Part shown: positions 6,755 through 16,410 of the stretch, one piece after another
Layout of the letters: each line of letters starts with the position of its first letter
Numbering within the stretch: the first letter of the stretch is position 1
Notes under the pieces: model-generated
Seen by the model: only the letters and a program-made list of their open reading frames with translations
Told to the model about the DNA's origin: nothing
Database searches by the model: none
NCBI RefSeq assembly: GCF_000027325.1
Contig: NC_000908.2
Location: 450,001 to 482,000, forward strand
Direction: 5' to 3'
Length of the DNA: 32,000 nucleotides
Source of the DNA: Mycoplasmoides genitalium G37
GTDB taxonomy: Bacteria > Bacillota_I > Bacilli_A > Mycoplasmatales > Mycoplasmoidaceae
Made by a program: the position numbers and the translations under genes

Positions 6755-7372
6755 ATGATTACATCTATCTTTGGAAAAGTTACTTTTGTAGGCAAAAGAA
6801 AAATAATTGTTGAGCACAACTGGATTTCATATTGATTTAATACAAAAGAAAACCATAAATTTGAAAAAAATTTGGAAAAAAATAAGCAAATTTTTTGTCA
6901 TATTATTAAAAAAATTGTCGCTAACCAAATTATAGAAGAGGCTTTTGCCTTTAATACTCTAGAAGAAAAAGAGTGGTTCTGTAGATTAATAGAACTCAAT
7001 GGTATTGGTAGTAAAACTGCACTTAATTTGCTCAATAATGACCTTGAGGAAATTAAACAATACATTCTGGAAAATAACTACAGTGCATTATGTGGTATTA
7101 ACGGTGTAAATAACAAAATAGCTCGTGCACTTTTATCACTTGAAATATTTGAAAAATCTGAAAATAATAAAAATATTAAAGGAGTTCAAGTTGCTGATGG
7201 TTATGATGAATTGTTTGAAACACTAAAGTCACTTGGTTACAAACAACAAGAAATTCAGGATGCACTAAAAATGATAGAAGTAAAACCTGATTTTGATATA
7301 AGTCAGTTAGTTGCAGAAGTAATTAAATTAATGTCTTTTAAGAATAATGAAATTACAAATAAAACCGCCTAA
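6755..7372 (+). CDS. ruvA: Holliday junction helicase subunit RuvA (205 aa)
   Basis: The ATG at 6755 is in phase with track ORF 6872..7372, which begins at an internal TTG; there is one TGA between them. The N-terminus MITSIFGKVTFVGKRKIIVE is the typical RuvA OB-domain start. The HhH region is LIELNGIGSKTALNLL ... INGVNNKIARALL, and there is a C-terminal domain III (LKSLGYKQQEIQDALKMI). Confidence 0.9.
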
Positions 7373-8270
7373 TACCTTTGATGAATTTGTAGGAAAACAA
7401 GAAATAATTAGTCAAATTCAATTAAGTATTAAAGCATCTAAATTAAATAAAACACAACTAGATCATATCTTGTTATATGGCCCACCTGGTGTGGGTAAAA
7501 CTACTTTAGCCAGATTAATAGCAAATGAATTGAAAACAAAGTTGCAAATTATTCAAGGTGGACATTTACAAAAACCAAGCGATTTCTTAAACGCAATTTC
7601 ACTCATTAAAAAAGGTGATGTTCTTTTTATAGATGAGATCCATGCCGTAGCACCTAATGTCATGGAACTAATGTATCCAGTTATGGATGTGTTCAAAATA
7701 CAAGTATTAATTGGCAAGGATTTTAATTCCAAGATAGTTGAAATGAAGGTAAATCCTTTTACTCTAATTGGTGCAACTACACAACTTGGTAAAATCATCA
7801 ATCCTTTAGAAGATAGATTTGGCGTTATCTTAAACATTAACTATTATTCAAATGCTGAAATTGAAAAGATGGTAAGTATCTATGGAAAGCAAATGAAGTT
7901 AGAGCTAAATTCAAATGAAATTTCAGCTATCACTGAACATAGTAAACAAACACCAAGAATTGCAATTAGAATAGTTAGAAGAATATTTGAACAAAAAATT
8001 GTTAATAAAAAAATAGACCTTGAGGGTTTGTTTAAGAATTTAATGATTTATAAAAATGGTCTGCAAAGTATTGATGTCCAATATCTTGAGGTTTTAAATC
8101 GCCAAAATGAACCACAAGGAATTAAGTCAATTAGTTCCATGTTAGGTATAGACAGACACACTATAGAAAATAAAATTGAACCTTTTTTGTTGCGTGAAAA
8201 TATGATTCAAAAAACCAAAAAAGGCAGGATTATTACAAATAGCGGAAGAGAATATTTAGTTAACTTTTAA
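7347..8270 (+). CDS. ruvB: Holliday junction helicase subunit RuvB (307 aa)
   Basis: Intact ORF with Walker A LYGPPGVGKTTLA, Walker B VLFIDEIH, sensor GATTQLGKI and TPRIAIRIVRR. It overlaps the ruvA 3' end by 26 nt. Confidence 0.95.
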   Translation: MKLQIKPPNTFDEFVGKQEIISQIQLSIKASKLNKTQLDHILLYGPPGVGKTTLARLIANELKTKLQIIQGGHLQKPSDFLNAISLIKKGDVLFIDEIHAVAPNVMELMYPVMDVFKIQVLIGKDFNSKIVEMKVNPFTLIGATTQLGKIINPLEDRFGVILNINYYSNAEIEKMVSIYGKQMKLELNSNEISAITEHSKQTPRIAIRIVRRIFEQKIVNKKIDLEGLFKNLMIYKNGLQSIDVQYLEVLNRQNEPQGIKSISSMLGIDRHTIENKIEPFLLRENMIQKTKKGRIITNSGREYLVNF

Positions 8271-9504
8271 GCTTATTAGCTCTTTTAATAATTTCAAAAC
8301 CAAAACTTTCATTAATATCAAAAATTAATTTATCAAGTGAAGATTCTTCGCTTAATTTGCTAATTGATTTTGGTATGAATTGATAAAATAAAGATTTTTT
8401 CTGTCCTTCATCTGTATCTATCTTTTTTAAATCAAAAAAACTAATACCTATTAATCGAACGTTCTTTTCAGTATTAATTAATAGTCTGTTGAATAATCGT
8501 TTTGTTATTGACAGTAGTTTTCTATAATCGTTTGAATATTTTTTCATTTTATTTGAATGAGAATTAACAATAAAATCATTGCTTTTCAATTGCACAACTA
8601 TCCCTTTACACACTTGTGAAGAGAGTTGTAATCTTATAAAGAGCTGATCAAATATTTGCGTTAACTTTTTATTTAACTGATTGTTTGAATAATTTAAATC
8701 TTCTAACGTTTCACTGACTGCAAAAGAGCGAGACTTAACCTGATTGTTATTATCTGTATATCATTTGCCTAGTGAAACTGCTTTTAAAGATTCTCAAAAA
8801 TTACCAAATACTTTTTTTAAAAGCGAAGCATCTTCACAAACTGCTAGATCATTTATTTTGTAAAAATTATTTTTAAAAACTAAATCAATATGTTTTTCTC
8901 CTATCCCTGGAATTTCAGTAATTGGTAGTGGTCAAAGTTTTTTTTTAATATCCTTAACTGAACAACTTTTAATTCCAAATGGTTTTGCTTGATTTGAAAA
9001 AATCTTAGCAATTAAAAAATGATCTGAGATGCCAATTGAAATTTTGATTCTCAAGTTTTGAAAAACAAAATTTTTTATTTTTTTCGCTATTAAAAATGCC
9101 TTTTTAAATGAAATGTTTTGAAAACAAGCAACCCCTTCATCAACAGAAAGAACATCAATTTTTAATGAAAAAGTGCTTTCAATAACTGAAAAAATACGTT
9201 TAGAATGTTTTCTGTAATTACGAAAATTAGAATGTGCAAAAATAGCATTTGGACATAGTTCTAATGCTTTTAAAATAGACATTCCAGATCTAATTCCATA
9301 ACTACGAGCAACATAGTTACAAGTTGAAACTACACTTCTTGAAAAGCGATTACCAACTATTAAGGGTTGATTAACTAATTCTGGATTTTCTAATTCTTCA
9401 ACAGATGCAAAAAAAGCATCAAAATCAAAATAAAGAAAAATTAAATTTTTATCAATTAAATATTCTGGTTCAAAATATGTAAAGGTGTTAATCATATTTA
9501 TCAA
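8260..9504 (-). CDS. Y-family (DinB/UmuC/ImpB-type) translesion DNA polymerase (about 411-414 aa)
   Basis: Fragments 8260..8613 and 8932..9504 are in phase. I read junction 8614-8931 and found only TGA, at 8932, 8794 and 8761. The translation has LYFDFDAFFASVEE (catalytic Asp motif), LSVDEGV, and PITEIPGIGEKHIDL (HhH). The true start may be the fourth codon, the second ATG of MINMIN... Confidence 0.85.
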
Positions 9505-11014: not shown

Positions 11015-11689
11015 ATGGATGGTGGACAACAAGGGAGTTTTTTTGGGCTTTTAGTAATTGTTATTCCAATAATTTTGTTAATTGTTTTTTTTTCCAAGAA
11101 AAAAGGGGCACAAAAAAATGATTTTAGTGGTGAAGGAGGTAATCGATCATCAAGAAAAGATGAAGTGTGAAAAACAATTAAACAGTTTTTGCAAGAAAAG
11201 AATGAACGTGGTAAAGAAATTATTAAAACTTTTGTAGCTAAAAAACCAAACCCTTTACATTCAAAAAAAGACCGCAAGCTTTTCAATCAAGAGATACAGG
11301 CATATATTACTAGTAATAACTTAGGAAAAAGCGAAGCAAAACGTTATAAAAATGAGCAAACTCGCTTAATGCAAAGAGAACTTTATTGTATTTATTTTGT
11401 TACAAAAGATGCTAAATCAACTGAAGTTGATGATGCTAGGATTATAGAAGCTGAGGTTTATCAAAAACCTACAAAAACCAAAAGTACTCCAGAGCGGCTA
11501 ATTCGTATACTTGGTTTAAAAAATTTTGAAACTGAAATGCAATGAATTCAACCATTAATGGTTCGTGAAGAAAAGAGAAAAGAAAAAGAAGAACAGAAAA
11601 AACTTAAATTAGCTGCAAGAGAACTAAAAAAGAAGAAAAAGAAGAAAATAAAAAAACCAAAAGAAATCAGAAATCAGAAAAATGTTTAA
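11015..11689 (+). CDS. Hypothetical membrane-anchored protein with a lysine-rich C-terminal tail (224 aa)
   Basis: The ATG at 11015 is in phase with track ORF 11189..11545, with two in-frame TGA. The TAA is at 11687-11689. The translation is MDGGQQGSFFGLLVIVIPIILLIVFFSKKKG (one TM helix) ... REEKRKEKEEQKKLKLAARELKKKKKKKIKKPKEIRNQKNV. Confidence 0.65.
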
Positions 11690-12617
11690 AATTGTTTTCT
11701 TTGGTACTTCAACGCTTTCAAAAAAATGTTTAGAACAACTTTTTTACGATAATGATTTTGAAATTTGTGCTGTTGTAACTCAGCCAGACAAAATTAATCA
11801 TCGTAACAATAAAATAGTACCTTCTGATGTTAAGTCTTTTTGTTTGGAAAAAAACATAACTTTTTTTCAACCAAAACAAAGCATAAGCATAAAAGCTGAT
11901 CTAGAAAAATTAAAAGCTGATATTGGTATTTGCGTTTCATTTGGTCAGTATCTTCATCAAGATATTATTGATCTTTTTCCAAATAAAGTAATTAACTTAC
12001 ATCCTTCTAAGTTACCACTACTTCGTGGTGGTGCACCATTACATTGAACCATTATTAATGGTTTTAAAAAATCTGCATTGAGTGTAATTCAATTGGTTAA
12101 AAAAATGGATGCAGGTCCGATTTGAAAACAACAAGATTTTTTAGTTAATAATGACTGAAATACTGGTGATTTATCCATATATGTAGAAGAACATTCACCC
12201 TCTTTTTTAATTGAATGTACTAAAGAAATTCTCAATAAAAAAGGGAAATGATTTGAACAAATAGGTGAACCTACTTTTGGATTAAACATAAGAAAAGAAC
12301 AAGAACATCTTGATCTTAATCAGATTTACAAGAGTTTTTTAAACTGAGTAAAAGGTTTAGCTCCCAAACCTGGTGGTTGGTTAAGCTTTGAAGGAAAAAA
12401 CATCAAAATTTTCAAAGCTAAATATGTTAGTAAAAGTAATTACAAACATCAATTAGGAGAGATAGTTAATATATCTCGAAAAGGAATTAATATTGCTTTA
12501 AAAAGCAATGAAATTATTTCAATTGAAAAAATTCAAATACCTGGAAAAAGGGTGATGGAAGTAAGTGAAATAATAAACGGAAAACATCCTTTTGTTGTTG
12601 GTAAATGTTTCAAATAG
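11682..12617 (+). CDS. fmt: Methionyl-tRNA formyltransferase (311 aa)
   Basis: Track ORF 11682..12047 extends through five TGA to the TAG at 12615-12617; I read every codon. The translation has MFKIVFFGTS..., VVTQPDK and NLHPSKLPLLRGGAPLHW (the formyltransferase active-site motif). Confidence 0.92.
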
Positions 12618-12618
12618 A

Positions 12619-14622
12619 ATGATTACAAAGAGTTTTTTCCTTAAAAATTTTGATCGCTCTAAAGAATTAATTCCTCTTTCATATAACGATGTTTTTAGCG
12701 CTGTTAATCAGTTTCTGAAAAGCTATACTGACGTTAATGATATTGATATTATTGAAGAAAATTTGATTGAAGATCCAGTTTTTGAACTTGATGTTTTAGA
12801 ACTTTTAAACGAGGATCCAATGCTATTATTGGACAGTAAAAATCCCCGTGTTCAAGAAGCTAAAATTATTGCTAATAAAGCAAAAAAAAATATTAAAGAT
12901 TATTTTAATCTTCCCATTTTTTTTGATACAGATAGTTTAGATAAAAATGTTTCTGTTTATCAAAAAGCTGAGCTTACTGAAAAGAAAATTCAAGAAATAA
13001 TAACATCAAAAAAATCAGCTATTATTTTTAAACCTATTTTTGAAATAGAAGATTGCTTAATTCAACCAGATGCTATTATTGTTCATGAAAAAGGACTTTG
13101 TGAATTTGTTGTTATAAAAGCTACAACCAATACAAAAAGAAAATATTTTTTGGAAATAATTTATGACTTTGTGTTATTTAAAAAAATAGGTAAGTATAAA
13201 CTTTTAAACTATTATTTTTGTACTGTTAAATACGAATTACAAAATAAAAATAATGTTTCTTTCTTTTTAAATACTGAAATAAAAACATCAAAAAACAGTT
13301 TTAGTTTAAGTTCAAAAGAAAAAGATTATTTTAAGAATAAACCTTTTAATCACCCTGAAAAAATTGCTTACATACACAAAAAAAAGAGCAATGGAGTTAA
13401 TGGTTTTTTGATTGTAAAACTCATTGATAACCTTATTAAAAACAATATAGTTGATTTAAACAAAATAAGTGATTTTGTTACTAAAGAAATTGACAGTAAA
13501 AGTGTTCGTAATATTCAACCACTTATTAAAAATGCGGCTAAAATACAAATTAATTTTTGAGATCAAATACAAGATATAAAAAAATATCAAGAACTCAAAA
13601 TAAATCAAATTGTTTTTAATTACAGTGAAAATTTTGATTCTTTTTGGAGTAACTATTTATTAAGAAATTTAATTAAATTAGTTTTTGCTCATAAATACAA
13701 TGAAATTTTTAAATTATCTGGTAAATTAGCTAATTGAAGTCAATTAACATATGCATATAAAGAAAATAAATCAATAACTATAAATCAACTGCTTCACGAA
13801 TTAAATCAGAAAAAAAGCAAGGCTAATTTTAATAACTCAACTAATAAAATAAGTTTTTTTCTTGAAGCGTGAAATAGTGAAAAAGGTTTTGCAATTGGCA
13901 ATAAATTTAAAAATACTTGAAATAAACTTAAAAAAAAGAAAGTTTATTTTGATTTTGAAACAATTAGTTCATCAATCAGAATCATAAATAATTCATTACC
14001 ATTTAGTCAAATTGTTACCCAATGCTCATTAATAGTTGATAAAAATGAAATAGATGATAAAAGAAAACTTAATTGTGAAAATCTAATTTTTGATCCCTTA
14101 TTTATTAGCGTTAATGACTTTAAAAAAGTAATTGATTCACTCTATCAAAACAATTGCAGTGATTATAGTTTTGTTGTTTTTAATAAATCTTTTGAAAAAA
14201 ACAGATTATTGGAAATGGCTACATTGATTAATGAACAAATATATAAAGAAAAAGTAAAAGCTATTGTTGACAATCTTTTTGACTTAGCTGATATTTTTAC
14301 TATTGAAAATAACTGTTTGGCTTTCAAACAGCTAAACGGTTTTTCCTCTATCAAAAAGGTTTTAACTATTATAGATGAAAGCTTTTTAAAGGCAAGTAAA
14401 TCAATTGGTTATCAAAATTTAAAAATCCAAAAAGGTGATGTAGCACAAGAAGTTGCTTTATCGCGTTTTCTAAATTGCTTAAATAAAAATGAATGAAATC
14501 AAGTAGCTTTTGAATTAAAAAAATATTGTGAAAATGATGTCAGAGCGATGATTTCAATTGTTTTATTTATCCAAGATTTAATCAAAAAAAATGATCTATT
14601 TACTTTTTATTCAGAAAATTAG
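12619..14622 (+). CDS. Large hypothetical protein (667 aa), DUF2779-like: N-terminal PD-(D/E)xK-like region plus a C-terminal DEDDy (DnaQ-like) 3'-5' exonuclease-like region
   Basis: The ATG at 12619 is preferred; the track's 12592 start is a TTG inside fmt. The ORF is in phase with track ORFs 12592..13560 and 14209..14496. I read all codons; there are five TGA and the TAG is at 14620-14622. Motifs seen: ITKSFFLKNF at the N-terminus; IQPDAIIVHEKGLCEFVVIKATT; VYFDFETISS (Exo I, DxE); VVFNKSFEKNRL (Exo II-like); KKYCENDVRAM (Exo III, Yx3D). Confidence 0.75.
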
Positions 14623-14645: not shown

Positions 14646-15434
14646 CTAATTTTTTTTAGGTTTAATAGCTAGTTTCTTACACATCTTTTGATTTTCTATC
14701 TTCTCTTTTAAATCACTAAAAAAATGGCTTCCTTTACTACTTTTTAAAAAACTTGTAAAAGAAGCCATTGCGTTGTGCTCTAAAACACTTTTATCATCGT
14801 AATTTTTGTTATTTGGGATAGCTTGTGATCAAATAATATCACCATCAAGTTCAATTATACTAAGTACCAAATTATTTGAAGTTAAGCTTACCCTAACTCT
14901 TGGTTCAGGTAATTTTTGCTCTTGAAAAAGTGAAAAGAAATCGTATTTTAAAATCTCAGAAAAAGTTCTTTCAAAAATATATTTTTCAACAAATTCAGTT
15001 GCTTTTTTCATCCCCATATCTTCATAAATGGCGCCAACCAAAGCTTCAAGTACATCACCAACAGTGTTTTCAGTTAGTTCAGCACCATTGCTTAACTTAA
15101 CAAAATCACCTAATTTTAGCTCCATACCAATACGATTAAGATTTTCACCCTTAACAATTTCAATCTTAGTTCTTGTTAAAAGACCTTCGTTATATTTAGG
15201 ATAAAGTTCAAATAGTTTTTTAGCAACAACAAAGTCAATTAAAGCATCACCTAAAAACTCTAAGCGATCGTAACTTTCACTAACATCTTCATGTTCATTG
15301 ATGTAAGAAGCGTGAATAAAAGCTTTTTCAAAAAATTCTCAATTATTAGGAAAAATATCTAAATTCTTTAAAAAAGTTGCTAGTTTTTTATCAAAAATCT
15401 TATTATTTTTTAGTTTCAAAACTTTATTCTTCAT
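14646..15434 (-). CDS. rnc: Ribonuclease III (262 aa)
   Basis: I extended track ORF 14829..15125 in both directions codon by codon. The ATG is at 15432-15434, TGA occur at 15339 and 14829, and the TAG is at 14646-14648. The translation has ESYDRLEFLGDALIDFVVAK (the RNase III signature) and a C-terminal dsRBD-like region. Confidence 0.92.
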
Positions 15435-16410
15435 AGTTATTCAAAGAAGTTTTAATTGCATTAATAAGATCAGATTTTAAGCTTAGATGTGCTAATCTAA
15501 TCGTGCTTAAAAATTGTTGTTTATCAGCAGAACCGTGAGTTTTTAAAGCTAATTTATTTAAACCCATTACAACAGCTCCAGCGTTATTTTTGTAATCAAA
15601 TTTTTTGGCTACACTTTTGATAATACCTAAGCTAAATAAGCCAGCAAGAGGATTTCTTTTATAACCCCTCTTAAGAATCCGTGCTATCGTTTTAAAAGTA
15701 CCTTCCATTGCTTTTAAAACTAAATTGCCGCTATATCCATCAGCTATCAAAATATCACATATTCCATCCAGTAAAAACCTTGATTCCACAAATCCTAAAA
15801 AGTTAAGATTTTTATCAGCTTTTAAAAGCTTAAATGCTTCTTGATGATAATCAAAACCTTTATTTTCTTCTGTTCCTATATTCAATAGTCCAATTTTAGG
15901 AGTTTTTTTTGTAGTTGTTTTTTTAACAAAAATATCAGCCATTAAACCTAAAAAATAAAGTTCTTTTCCTGTGAAATATTTATTAGCTCCAACATCCAAA
16001 AAATAAAACCAATTATTGTTATCTGTCGGTACATAAGACATAAAAGCACTCTTAGTATTTTTATTAATTTTGCCAAAAGCATCATTTGTTAAAGAAGCAT
16101 AAACTGCTGAAGAGCCTGCTGAAATTACAACATCAGCATTACCTTCACGAACTAAGTTTATGGCTATTTGCATTGAACTGTTAACTTTTCTTCTTGCACT
16201 TAGTGGAGTGTCGGTCATTTCAATGAAAGAATTAGCAAGTTTTTTTGTAATATTTTTTGGAAGTATATCAAGACCATCAAAAGCCTTTTCATCACCGATC
16301 AGAATGAAATTTAAGTCCTGATGAAAACTCCAATATTTCAATACTGCTTCAATTGCTTCACTAGGTTTGTTTTCAAAACCTAAACAATCAACTGCAAATC
16401 TAAAAGCCAT
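15424..16410 (-). CDS. plsX: Phosphate acyltransferase PlsX (328 aa)
   Basis: Intact ORF of PlsX length and character (...VVISAGSSAVYASL..., ...LKTHGSADK...). It lies between a FakA-like gene and rnc, as in Firmicutes. Confidence 0.88.
   Translation of the reverse strand: MAFRFAVDCLGFENKPSEAIEAVLKYWSFHQDLNFILIGDEKAFDGLDILPKNITKKLANSFIEMTDTPLSARRKVNSSMQIAINLVREGNADVVISAGSSAVYASLTNDAFGKINKNTKSAFMSYVPTDNNNWFYFLDVGANKYFTGKELYFLGLMADIFVKKTTTKKTPKIGLLNIGTEENKGFDYHQEAFKLLKADKNLNFLGFVESRFLLDGICDILIADGYSGNLVLKAMEGTFKTIARILKRGYKRNPLAGLFSLGIIKSVAKKFDYKNNAGAVVMGLNKLALKTHGSADKQQFLSTIRLAHLSLKSDLINAIKTSLNNYEE

Follow-up and report, generated by a model that had tools for sequence, protein, structure and literature searches.

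MG366 of Mycoplasmoides genitalium joins a conserved DEDDy exonuclease-like domain to a degenerate Cas4-like domain

The 32,000-nucleotide (nt) stretch of the Mycoplasmoides genitalium G37 chromosome analyzed here (contig NC_000908.2, positions 450,001 to 482,000; hereafter the window) contains MG366, a gene for an uncharacterized protein of 667 amino acids (aa). MG366 is a member of the DUF2779/UU173 family. Its C-terminal half carries a strictly conserved DEDDy exonuclease site in a predicted RNase H-like fold. Its N-terminal half is predicted to adopt a Cas4/RecB-like PD-(D/E)xK fold, in which a metal-binding glutamate has been replaced by valine. We favor, at somewhat better than even odds (probability about 0.57), a metal-dependent 3'-5' exonuclease that probably acts on DNA, carries a largely non-catalytic Cas4-like module and serves housekeeping genome maintenance. 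Coordinates are collected in Table 1.

Identity and family of MG366

The window has a G+C content of about 27%, and its ORF (open reading frame) list made with genetic code table 11 is broken at TGA in many genes, indicating a Mollicute that uses code 4. The table 11 reading of MG366 was rejected since it is broken at five in-frame TGA codons (13561, 13735, 13873, 13918 and 14494). Re-translation with table 4, which reads them as tryptophan, yielded a single intact 667-aa ORF, as had been proposed in an initial annotation made from the sequence alone. That annotation also spoke of a roughly 500-gene organism, and rightly so: by exact-sequence look-up the protein is M. genitalium G37 'Uncharacterized protein MG366' (AAC71593.1). 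Databases describe it as a 'DUF2779 domain-containing protein' or 'UU173 family protein', and a 65%-identical relative is the 'MG366 homolog' of M. pneumoniae (MPN544).

Family membership was established with two profiles. Pfam PF11074 (DUF2779) matches residues 442-577 over profile positions 1-126/126, well above its gathering threshold (79.7 bits vs 23.3, E 2.9e-22), and is matched by 69/69 relatives as well. NCBIfam NF045869 (UU173 family) matches over the full length, with residues 2-657 aligned to profile positions 1-650/650 (370.5 bits vs a cut-off of 225). A search of 1.84 billion representatives returned 2,099 relatives at E≤1e-3, and the 78 relatives recovered from a genome scan are all Mycoplasmoidaceae. 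The members MMSYN1_0389 (JCVI-syn3.0), MPN544 and Mbov_0804 (M. bovis) combine a Cas4-like N-half with a DEDDy C-half, as does MG366.

In two automated public annotations (P0001 and P0175, 676 aa) the protein begins 27 nt further upstream, at a TTG within fmt. This alternative start (12592) was rejected because it overlaps fmt by 26 nt and because the N-terminus of the M. pneumoniae orthologue aligns with the ATG at 12619. Some model coordinates below are in the numbering of the 676-aa form and are marked as P0001 numbering.

The C-half carries a conserved DEDDy site

The initial annotation had found three motifs of DnaQ-like 3'-5' exonucleases in the C-terminal part, namely VYFDFET, FNKSFEKNRL and KKYCENDVRAM. 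All three lie where it placed them, and their key residues recur in 122-125 of 125 full-length homologues, so the motifs are not a matter of chance. In Exo I, gat at 13951-13953 encodes D445 and gaa at 13957-13959 encodes E447, each kept in 123/125. Exo II lies within FNKSFEKNRL and fits the pattern Nx2-3(F/Y)D by position, with Glu as the acid; E526 is found in 125/125 homologues and N522 in 122/125. Exo III, a Yx3D motif within KKYCENDVRAM, has Y636 in 122/125 and D640 in 123/125. The C-half catalytic set is intact in 78/78 related genomes, and these residues are common to MG366 and the DUF2779/UU173 family.

Conservation extends beyond the classical motifs. D555, in the FDLAD motif at 14281-14295, is a fifth conserved acid that is not expected for DEDD enzymes. 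An invariant family motif, PFSQIVTQCS at 13999-14028, lies outside Exo I-III (Q464 in 121/125, Q468 in 124/125), and K579, also outside the classical set, is kept in 124/125 homologues.

An AlphaFold2 model of MG366 was built with 18 homologues (predicted local distance difference test score, pLDDT, 84.7; predicted template modeling score, pTM, 0.85). The residues adopt a DEDDy layout in this model. D445 and E447 lie on the first beta-strand (E449-458, P0001 numbering), N522, F525 and E526 open the helix that follows the fourth strand, and Y636 and D640 lie on the C-terminal helix.

Foldseek was used to compare the model with predicted viral structures (BFVD). Two proteins matched with probability 1.0, Faunusvirus A0A3G4ZWN9 (E 1.1e-8) and Cafeteria roenbergensis virus (CroV) E3T4R0, annotated as 'YprB ribonuclease H-like domain-containing protein' (E 3.6e-6). 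The next matches were Exonuclease V (probability 0.99), PD-(D/E)XK proteins (0.94-0.97) and a family-A DNA polymerase (0.98). Both viral alignments are full-length (741-769 columns, 11-13% identity), suggesting the same two-domain build. On the strength of these predicted structures, a PD-(D/E)xK domain joined to a YprB-like exonuclease would exist in giant viruses too; the two proteins differ from MG366 in host and, at 11-13% identity, in sequence, and are likewise uncharacterized.

PF11074, the literature clade, the CroV match and the position of the catalytic residues on the expected strand and helices agree with the DnaQ/DEDD-type assignment of the initial annotation, and the Foldseek match at E 3.6e-6 places the C-half inside the RNase H-like DEDD fold. 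On the conserved exonuclease residues and the AlphaFold/Foldseek matches, the fold assignments of both halves hold. Taken together, the model and the conservation give good support for a DEDDy exonuclease domain in the C-half, its RNase H-like fold being of the YprB/family-B-polymerase exonuclease type. Weak PHROG matches were to DNA polymerase and its exonuclease subunit.

The resemblance to YprB does not extend to sequence. PF13482 RNase_H_2 (the YprB family) gave no match at E≤1 for MG366 or any of 69 relatives, so that the similarity is at the fold or profile-profile level only. Pfam at E≤1 found no second nuclease family in the 69 relatives except weak NERD matches in 7.

The N-half site is degenerate

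The N-half had been likened in the initial annotation to the PD-(D/E)xK core of RecB/Cas4-like nucleases, and the model bears this out. Helix 113-129, strands 134-137, 141-148, 152-155 and 160-166, helix 176-190 and strand 194-203 of the AlphaFold2 model give the core order alpha-beta-beta-beta-alpha-beta, with D151 at the start of a strand and V165/K167 at the end of the next. When the N-half alone was compared with the Protein Data Bank (PDB) by Foldseek, the top four matches were Cas4-family ACE1 (E 0.011-0.033), and the BFVD matches to Exonuclease V and PD-(D/E)XK proteins (probability 0.94-0.99) point the same way. All PDB matches were weak, and those of the whole model were non-significant; by kind they were ACE1, R2 RLE, HincII, Card1, AdnAB, RNase T and Nibbler EXO (for the last two, TM score 0.41, E about 0.4-1.8). 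A Cas4/RecB-like PD-(D/E)xK fold of the N-half is thus well supported by modeling. The helical middle region between the two domains had no Pfam or PDB match.

The motif IQPDAIIVHEKGLCEFVVIKATT contains D151 (13069), V165 (13111) and K167 (13117). Of the catalytic triad D...(D/E)-x-K, MG366 has D151 and K167, and valine occupies the position of the acid. The initial annotation had suspected from this valine, two residues before the lysine, that the site may be degenerate; the suspicion was correct, and the change is lineage-specific. Glutamate is found at position 165 in 16/18 close homologues and valine only in M. genitalium and M. pneumoniae. Since M. amphoriforme, M. testudinis and 74/76 related genomes keep D-E-K, E165V is the derived state. 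The other two degenerate triads of the 76 are those of M. imitans (L023) and an uncultured Mycoplasmatales (L019), reading E-S-K and V-F-K, which suggests that the N-half site has eroded separately on other occasions in this branch of the family.

A second residue is lost along with the glutamate. The Gln/Tyr motif of the helix that follows the ExK strand (LDxx[F/Y]Q in the family) reads LEIIYD in MG366, with Q183 changed to aspartate. Gln183 is present in 73/76 triad-intact members vs 8/57 degenerate members, a comparison that ignores phylogeny. MG366 and MPN544 therefore differ from the DUF2779/UU173 family in lacking both the Glu of D...ExK and Gln183. Because the metal-binding Glu and the linked Gln are gone, the N-half probably does not cut, or cuts poorly. 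There is no invariant or near-invariant cysteine in the N-half of the 18-sequence alignment, and with it no counterpart of the four-Cys Fe-S cluster of Cas4.

An independent hidden Markov model alignment of 123 family members, a Mollicute-biased sample, was used to compare the two sites. The N-triad is degenerate in 56/123 members. Conversely, the C-half set is intact in 121/123, including 55/56 of those with a degenerate N-triad. This result suggests that the exonuclease site is strictly constrained and the PD-(D/E)xK site is not.

The same observations bear on whether both halves could be active nucleases, with Cas4-like cutting combined with 3'-5' trimming and with E162, E179 or a water-mediated contact replacing Glu165. 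This has been proposed for MMSYN1_0389, in which D186/E210/K212 are intact and both halves are predicted active (mSphere 2026). MG366 retains D151, K167 and E179. Migration of active-site residues is known in the PD-(D/E)xK superfamily. However, E162 is not conserved at its column and, lying five residues before K167, would face the opposite side of the beta-strand. Q183 was lost together with E165, as in clearly degenerate members, and the 56/123 members that lost triad residues nevertheless keep the exonuclease site. Two active halves in MG366 therefore appear rather improbable.

Operon and genomic neighborhood

MG366 is the last gene of a unit comprising the DUF5385 gene, fmt and MG366. The fmt stop codon TAG ends at 12617, leaving a gap of 1 nt before the MG366 ATG, and the DUF5385 gene and fmt overlap by 8 nt. 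In M. pneumoniae the three counterparts likewise make up one operon, number 242 (MPN542-543-544). The tight coupling to fmt proposed in the initial annotation thus holds for these two species. It is not general: of 78 related loci, 15 have fmt within about 1.4 kb upstream, 18 have it anywhere in the fetched flanks and 13, by ORF-level clustering, have it directly upstream. A lysyl-tRNA-synthetase-like gene (24 loci) and rplJ/rplL also recur as neighbors in the 78 loci. Gene-neighborhood clustering of these loci revealed no recurring repair or defense partner.

Co-transcription with fmt, the recurrent lysyl-tRNA-synthetase-like, fmt and rplJ/rplL neighbors and the convergent rnc gene raise the question of whether MG366 is instead a 3'-5' exoribonuclease that matures or turns over RNA, linked in function to the translation genes of its transcript and filling a gap in the small Mollicute exoribonuclease set. 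Many DEDD families are RNases, RNase T and Nibbler are among the PDB matches, and an M. bovis DUF2779 mutant was recovered alongside a mutant in the nanoRNase NrnA. But the characterized relatives closest in profile or fold, MrfB, Cas4, polymerase exonucleases and Exonuclease V, act on DNA, and the other genes of the M. bovis screen belong mostly to DNA replication and repair. Moreover, fmt is near in only 15/78 loci. Neighbors in a compact genome are weak evidence. An RNA substrate is considered unlikely, and DNA is preferred, with MrfB and Cas4 as the relatives that speak for it.

Defense against foreign DNA by a 'solo Cas4' lineage was also considered. The family has been filed under 'immunity connections' by authors whose own discussion holds that it must act beyond immunity (mSphere 2026); the N-half resembles Cas4, and proteins of the same fold occur in giant viruses and phages. 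PADLOC-DB 2.0 returned 0 matches for MG366 and three scattered single-member matches among 69 relatives. As nothing recurrent was found, the defense-system reading was rejected. The setting is one of housekeeping genes with no defense island, and no cas genes were seen among the window ORFs or the recurrent neighbors in 78 loci. The 78 genome-scan relatives are all from one family, the Mycoplasmoidaceae, each with the C-half catalytic set, and both M. pneumoniae and syn3.0 have the gene as quasi-essential when grown axenically. An immunity role is accordingly very improbable.

Several further features of the region were recorded. The DUF5385 protein (11015-11689, +) has a hydrophobic N-terminal stretch and a lysine-rich tail; its gene adjoins fmt in 16/78 related loci, and M. 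pneumoniae MPN542 is scored essential ('E'). A ruvB gene (+) and an impB/mucB/samB-family polymerase gene with an IMS domain (-) lie at 7347-9504, about 3-5 kb upstream. These repair genes are near but not adjacent, since rplJ, rplL, rpsT, the DUF5385 gene and fmt intervene, and other genomes showed no linkage of ruvB or the IMS polymerase to MG366. At 14311-14341, within the sequence that encodes the C-half, a 10-12 bp hairpin with a T-run is terminator-like on both strands (2 elements found vs 0.9 expected). Close to where the 3' end of MPN544 meets rnc, the M. pneumoniae annotation has a promoter-like element with a transcription start site (664650-664660) and the small RNA ncMPN097 (664700-664820).

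Table 1. Features of MG366 and of the genes beside it (window coordinates; Foldseek and AlphaFold2, AF2, as in the text).
Feature	Position	Strand	Evidence
MG366, complete coding sequence	12619..14622	+	exact AAC71593.1 match; PF11074; NF045869
N-half, predicted Cas4/RecB-like PD-(D/E)xK core, ~residues 75-235	12841..13323	+	AF2 secondary structure; Foldseek ACE1; ExoV/PD-(D/E)XK matches
D151 of 'PD' motif, retained	13069..13071	+	invariant in 18-sequence alignment; D in 76/76 triad-intact members
V165-I-K167, E-x-K of the family with metal-binding Glu changed to Val	13111..13119	+	18-sequence alignment; related genomes
D183, Gln in triad-intact members (LDxx[F/Y]Q)	13165..13167	+	73/76 vs 8/57
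Helical middle region, ~residues 236-430, lower confidence in part	13324..13908	+	AF2 helices H241-428 (P0001 numbering), pLDDT 55-95
A8 homopolymer just 5' of Exo I; A7 elsewhere	13930..13937	+	comparison of M. genitalium genome records
C-half, DEDDy 3'-5' exonuclease-like domain, predicted RNase H-like fold, ~residues 440-660	13936..14598	+	PF11074; Foldseek CroV; weak RNase T/Nibbler EXO
Exo I, D445-F-E447	13951..13959	+	conservation; strand beta-1
Exo II, N522-K-S-F525-E526, helix start	14182..14196	+	conservation; helix H532-546 (P0001 numbering)
D555 of FDLAD, further near-invariant acid	14281..14283	+	124/125 homologues
Exo III, Y636-C-E-N-D640, long C-terminal helix	14524..14538	+	conservation; helix H632-666 (P0001 numbering)
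Genes preceding MG366 in its transcription unit: DUF5385 protein (11015-11689), fmt (11682-12617)	11015..12617	+	Pfam; spacing; M. pneumoniae operon 242
rnc (RNase III), convergent downstream, outside the unit	14646..15461	-	Pfam Ribonuclease_3

Fitness data and a homopolymer frameshift

Transposon data, to which the initial annotation had pointed, were taken from the literature. The locus tags MG366, MG_366 and MPN544 were not found in literature main texts, the fitness data being in supplements; the name 'mg366' in the literature is an unrelated C. elegans eri-1 allele and was set aside. MPN544 was classed 'E' in 2015 (Lluch-Senar 2015 supplement), and a 2025 data set has it as 'F1' (quasi-essential). 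MG_366 is scored non-essential ('NE'; Lluch-Senar 2015 supplement), and MMSYN1_0389 is quasi-essential in syn3.0 (mSphere 2026). The M. bovis DUF2779 transposon mutant, isolated in a co-culture screen, grew normally in broth and poorly with host cells.

Of the 21 homopolymer runs of ≥8 nt in the window, 5 fall within MG366. In three complete M. genitalium genomes (CP003770, CP003771 and CP003772; loci L082-L084) the A8 tract just ahead of Exo I reads A7. This breaks the gene into pieces of 455 and 212 aa, so that the protein ends immediately ahead of the Exo I motif. Elsewhere in the gene these records depart from the window at only 0-2 positions, making a shared homopolymer miscall plausible. 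They could reflect a real slippage-prone frameshift or such a shared sequencing error. Similar breaks occur in a fourth record (a 579,558-bp contig) and in a draft with fragments of 92, 354 and 244 aa; the tract 12882-12890 is listed alongside the A8 tract.

The split records, the eroded N-site and the non-essential score of MG_366, while MPN544 is listed as essential, could mean that the gene is decaying in M. genitalium, dispensable, interrupted in some strains and contributing little. Against this, the window ORF is intact with all C-half catalytic residues present, the exact 667-aa sequence was found on 28 contigs, and the split is plausibly an artefact of homopolymer miscalling. M. pneumoniae moreover has the same N-site substitution, and there the gene is quasi-essential. 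Decay is judged quite improbable.

Discussion

In the explanation we favor, a 3'-5' exonuclease of genome maintenance, the C-half would be the catalytic engine of MG366, using two bound divalent metal ions to release nucleotides in the 3'-to-5' direction from the end of a nucleic acid, most likely DNA. The N-half of the M. genitalium/M. pneumoniae lineage may be an end- or structure-binding module that positions the substrate for the exonuclease, and the role of the protein would be in processing DNA ends or lesions. Such a role would matter for fitness in M. pneumoniae and JCVI-syn3.0 and be dispensable in vitro in M. genitalium. Family membership, the folds of both halves and the strict conservation of D445, E447, E526, Y636 and D640 are the firm ground on which this stands; the activity, the substrate and the inactivity of the N-half are what we infer for MG366.

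Several results weigh against this explanation. The PDB Foldseek matches are individually non-significant (E 0.01-0.4). Searches of all PDB sequences with phmmer and with two hmmsearch profiles (18 and 69 sequences) matched no solved nuclease and returned chance matches to 14-3-3, tryptophanase and spike. Alignment of the family halves by hhalign with single E. coli DnaQ, PolB-exonuclease and RecB-nuclease sequences gave no signal; with 120-homologue PolB-exonuclease and RecB-nuclease profiles, probabilities were about 0.1% for expected and control pairs alike, the templates being narrow (effective number of sequences about 2.6) and secondary structure unused. The acid of Exo II is Glu where the canonical residue is Asp. 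Retention of D151, K167 and E179, with E162 nearby, would allow residual or re-wired activity of the N-half. The operon partner fmt and the frequent lysyl-tRNA-synthetase-like neighbor are translation genes. Finally, MG_366 is listed as non-essential and the gene is frameshifted in some genome records.

Comparison with characterized proteins places MG366 between two groups. With MrfB/PF13482 and the DEDDh/DEDDy 3'-5' DNA exonucleases allied to the exonuclease domain of family-B polymerases it shares the RNase H-like fold, Exo I DxE, Exo II NxxF(D/E) and Exo III (H/Y)x3-4D. Unlike MrfB (B. subtilis YprB), it has Tyr and not His as general base, Glu and not Asp in Exo II, the extra invariant D555 and a fused PD-(D/E)xK domain; no MrfA-like helicase partner was seen among its neighbors. 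With the Cas4/RecB nucleases (SSO0001 4IC1, Cas4-Cas1 7MID, ACE1 9IAB, RecB/AddAB/AdnAB) it shares the alpha-beta-beta-beta-alpha-beta core, in which Asp opens strand 2 and Lys closes strand 3. It differs from them in the missing catalytic Glu (Val165), in having no conserved Fe-S cysteines and in the absence of a CRISPR/cas context.

The initial annotation had presented the protein as a notable fusion of two nucleases with no assigned function. The fusion is correct, and the gene, its family and this interpretation are already in databases and, at the family level, in the literature (Majorek 2014; mSphere 2026). Within the RNase H-like superfamily, DUF2779 has been assigned to the 3'-5' exonuclease clade as family F.17 and reported to co-occur with the Cas4-like DUF83 (Majorek et al. 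2014). MMSYN1_0389 matches Cas4 (7MID, 2e-6) and MrfB (8UN9, 5e-7) in HHpred, is likewise without the four-Cys Fe-S cluster of Cas4, and its D/E/K residues are described as conserved throughout the family (mSphere 2026). To this picture the alignments make two modest additions, namely that Glu165 and Gln183 were lost in one lineage and that the two halves are under unequal constraint.

We tentatively suggest, as a possibility that we regard as doubtful, that the Cas4-like domain has repeatedly become a pseudo-nuclease in this family (here by E165V and Q183D) while the DEDDy site stayed invariant. Trimming of 3' ends would then be guided by a non-catalytic PD-(D/E)xK end sensor. Mollicutes are not known to have RecBCD or AddAB, and a protein of this kind could be their missing exonuclease for DNA-end processing or repair.

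The degenerate triads in 56/123 members qualify the published claim that D/E/K is conserved family-wide. With an N-site that is dispensable and often degenerate and an exonuclease site that is invariant, caution is needed in transferring 'both domains active' from syn3.0 to the human pathogens. MG366 orthologues are among the conserved uncharacterized proteins of the smallest genomes, and an assigned activity would close a gap in the parts list of the minimal cell.

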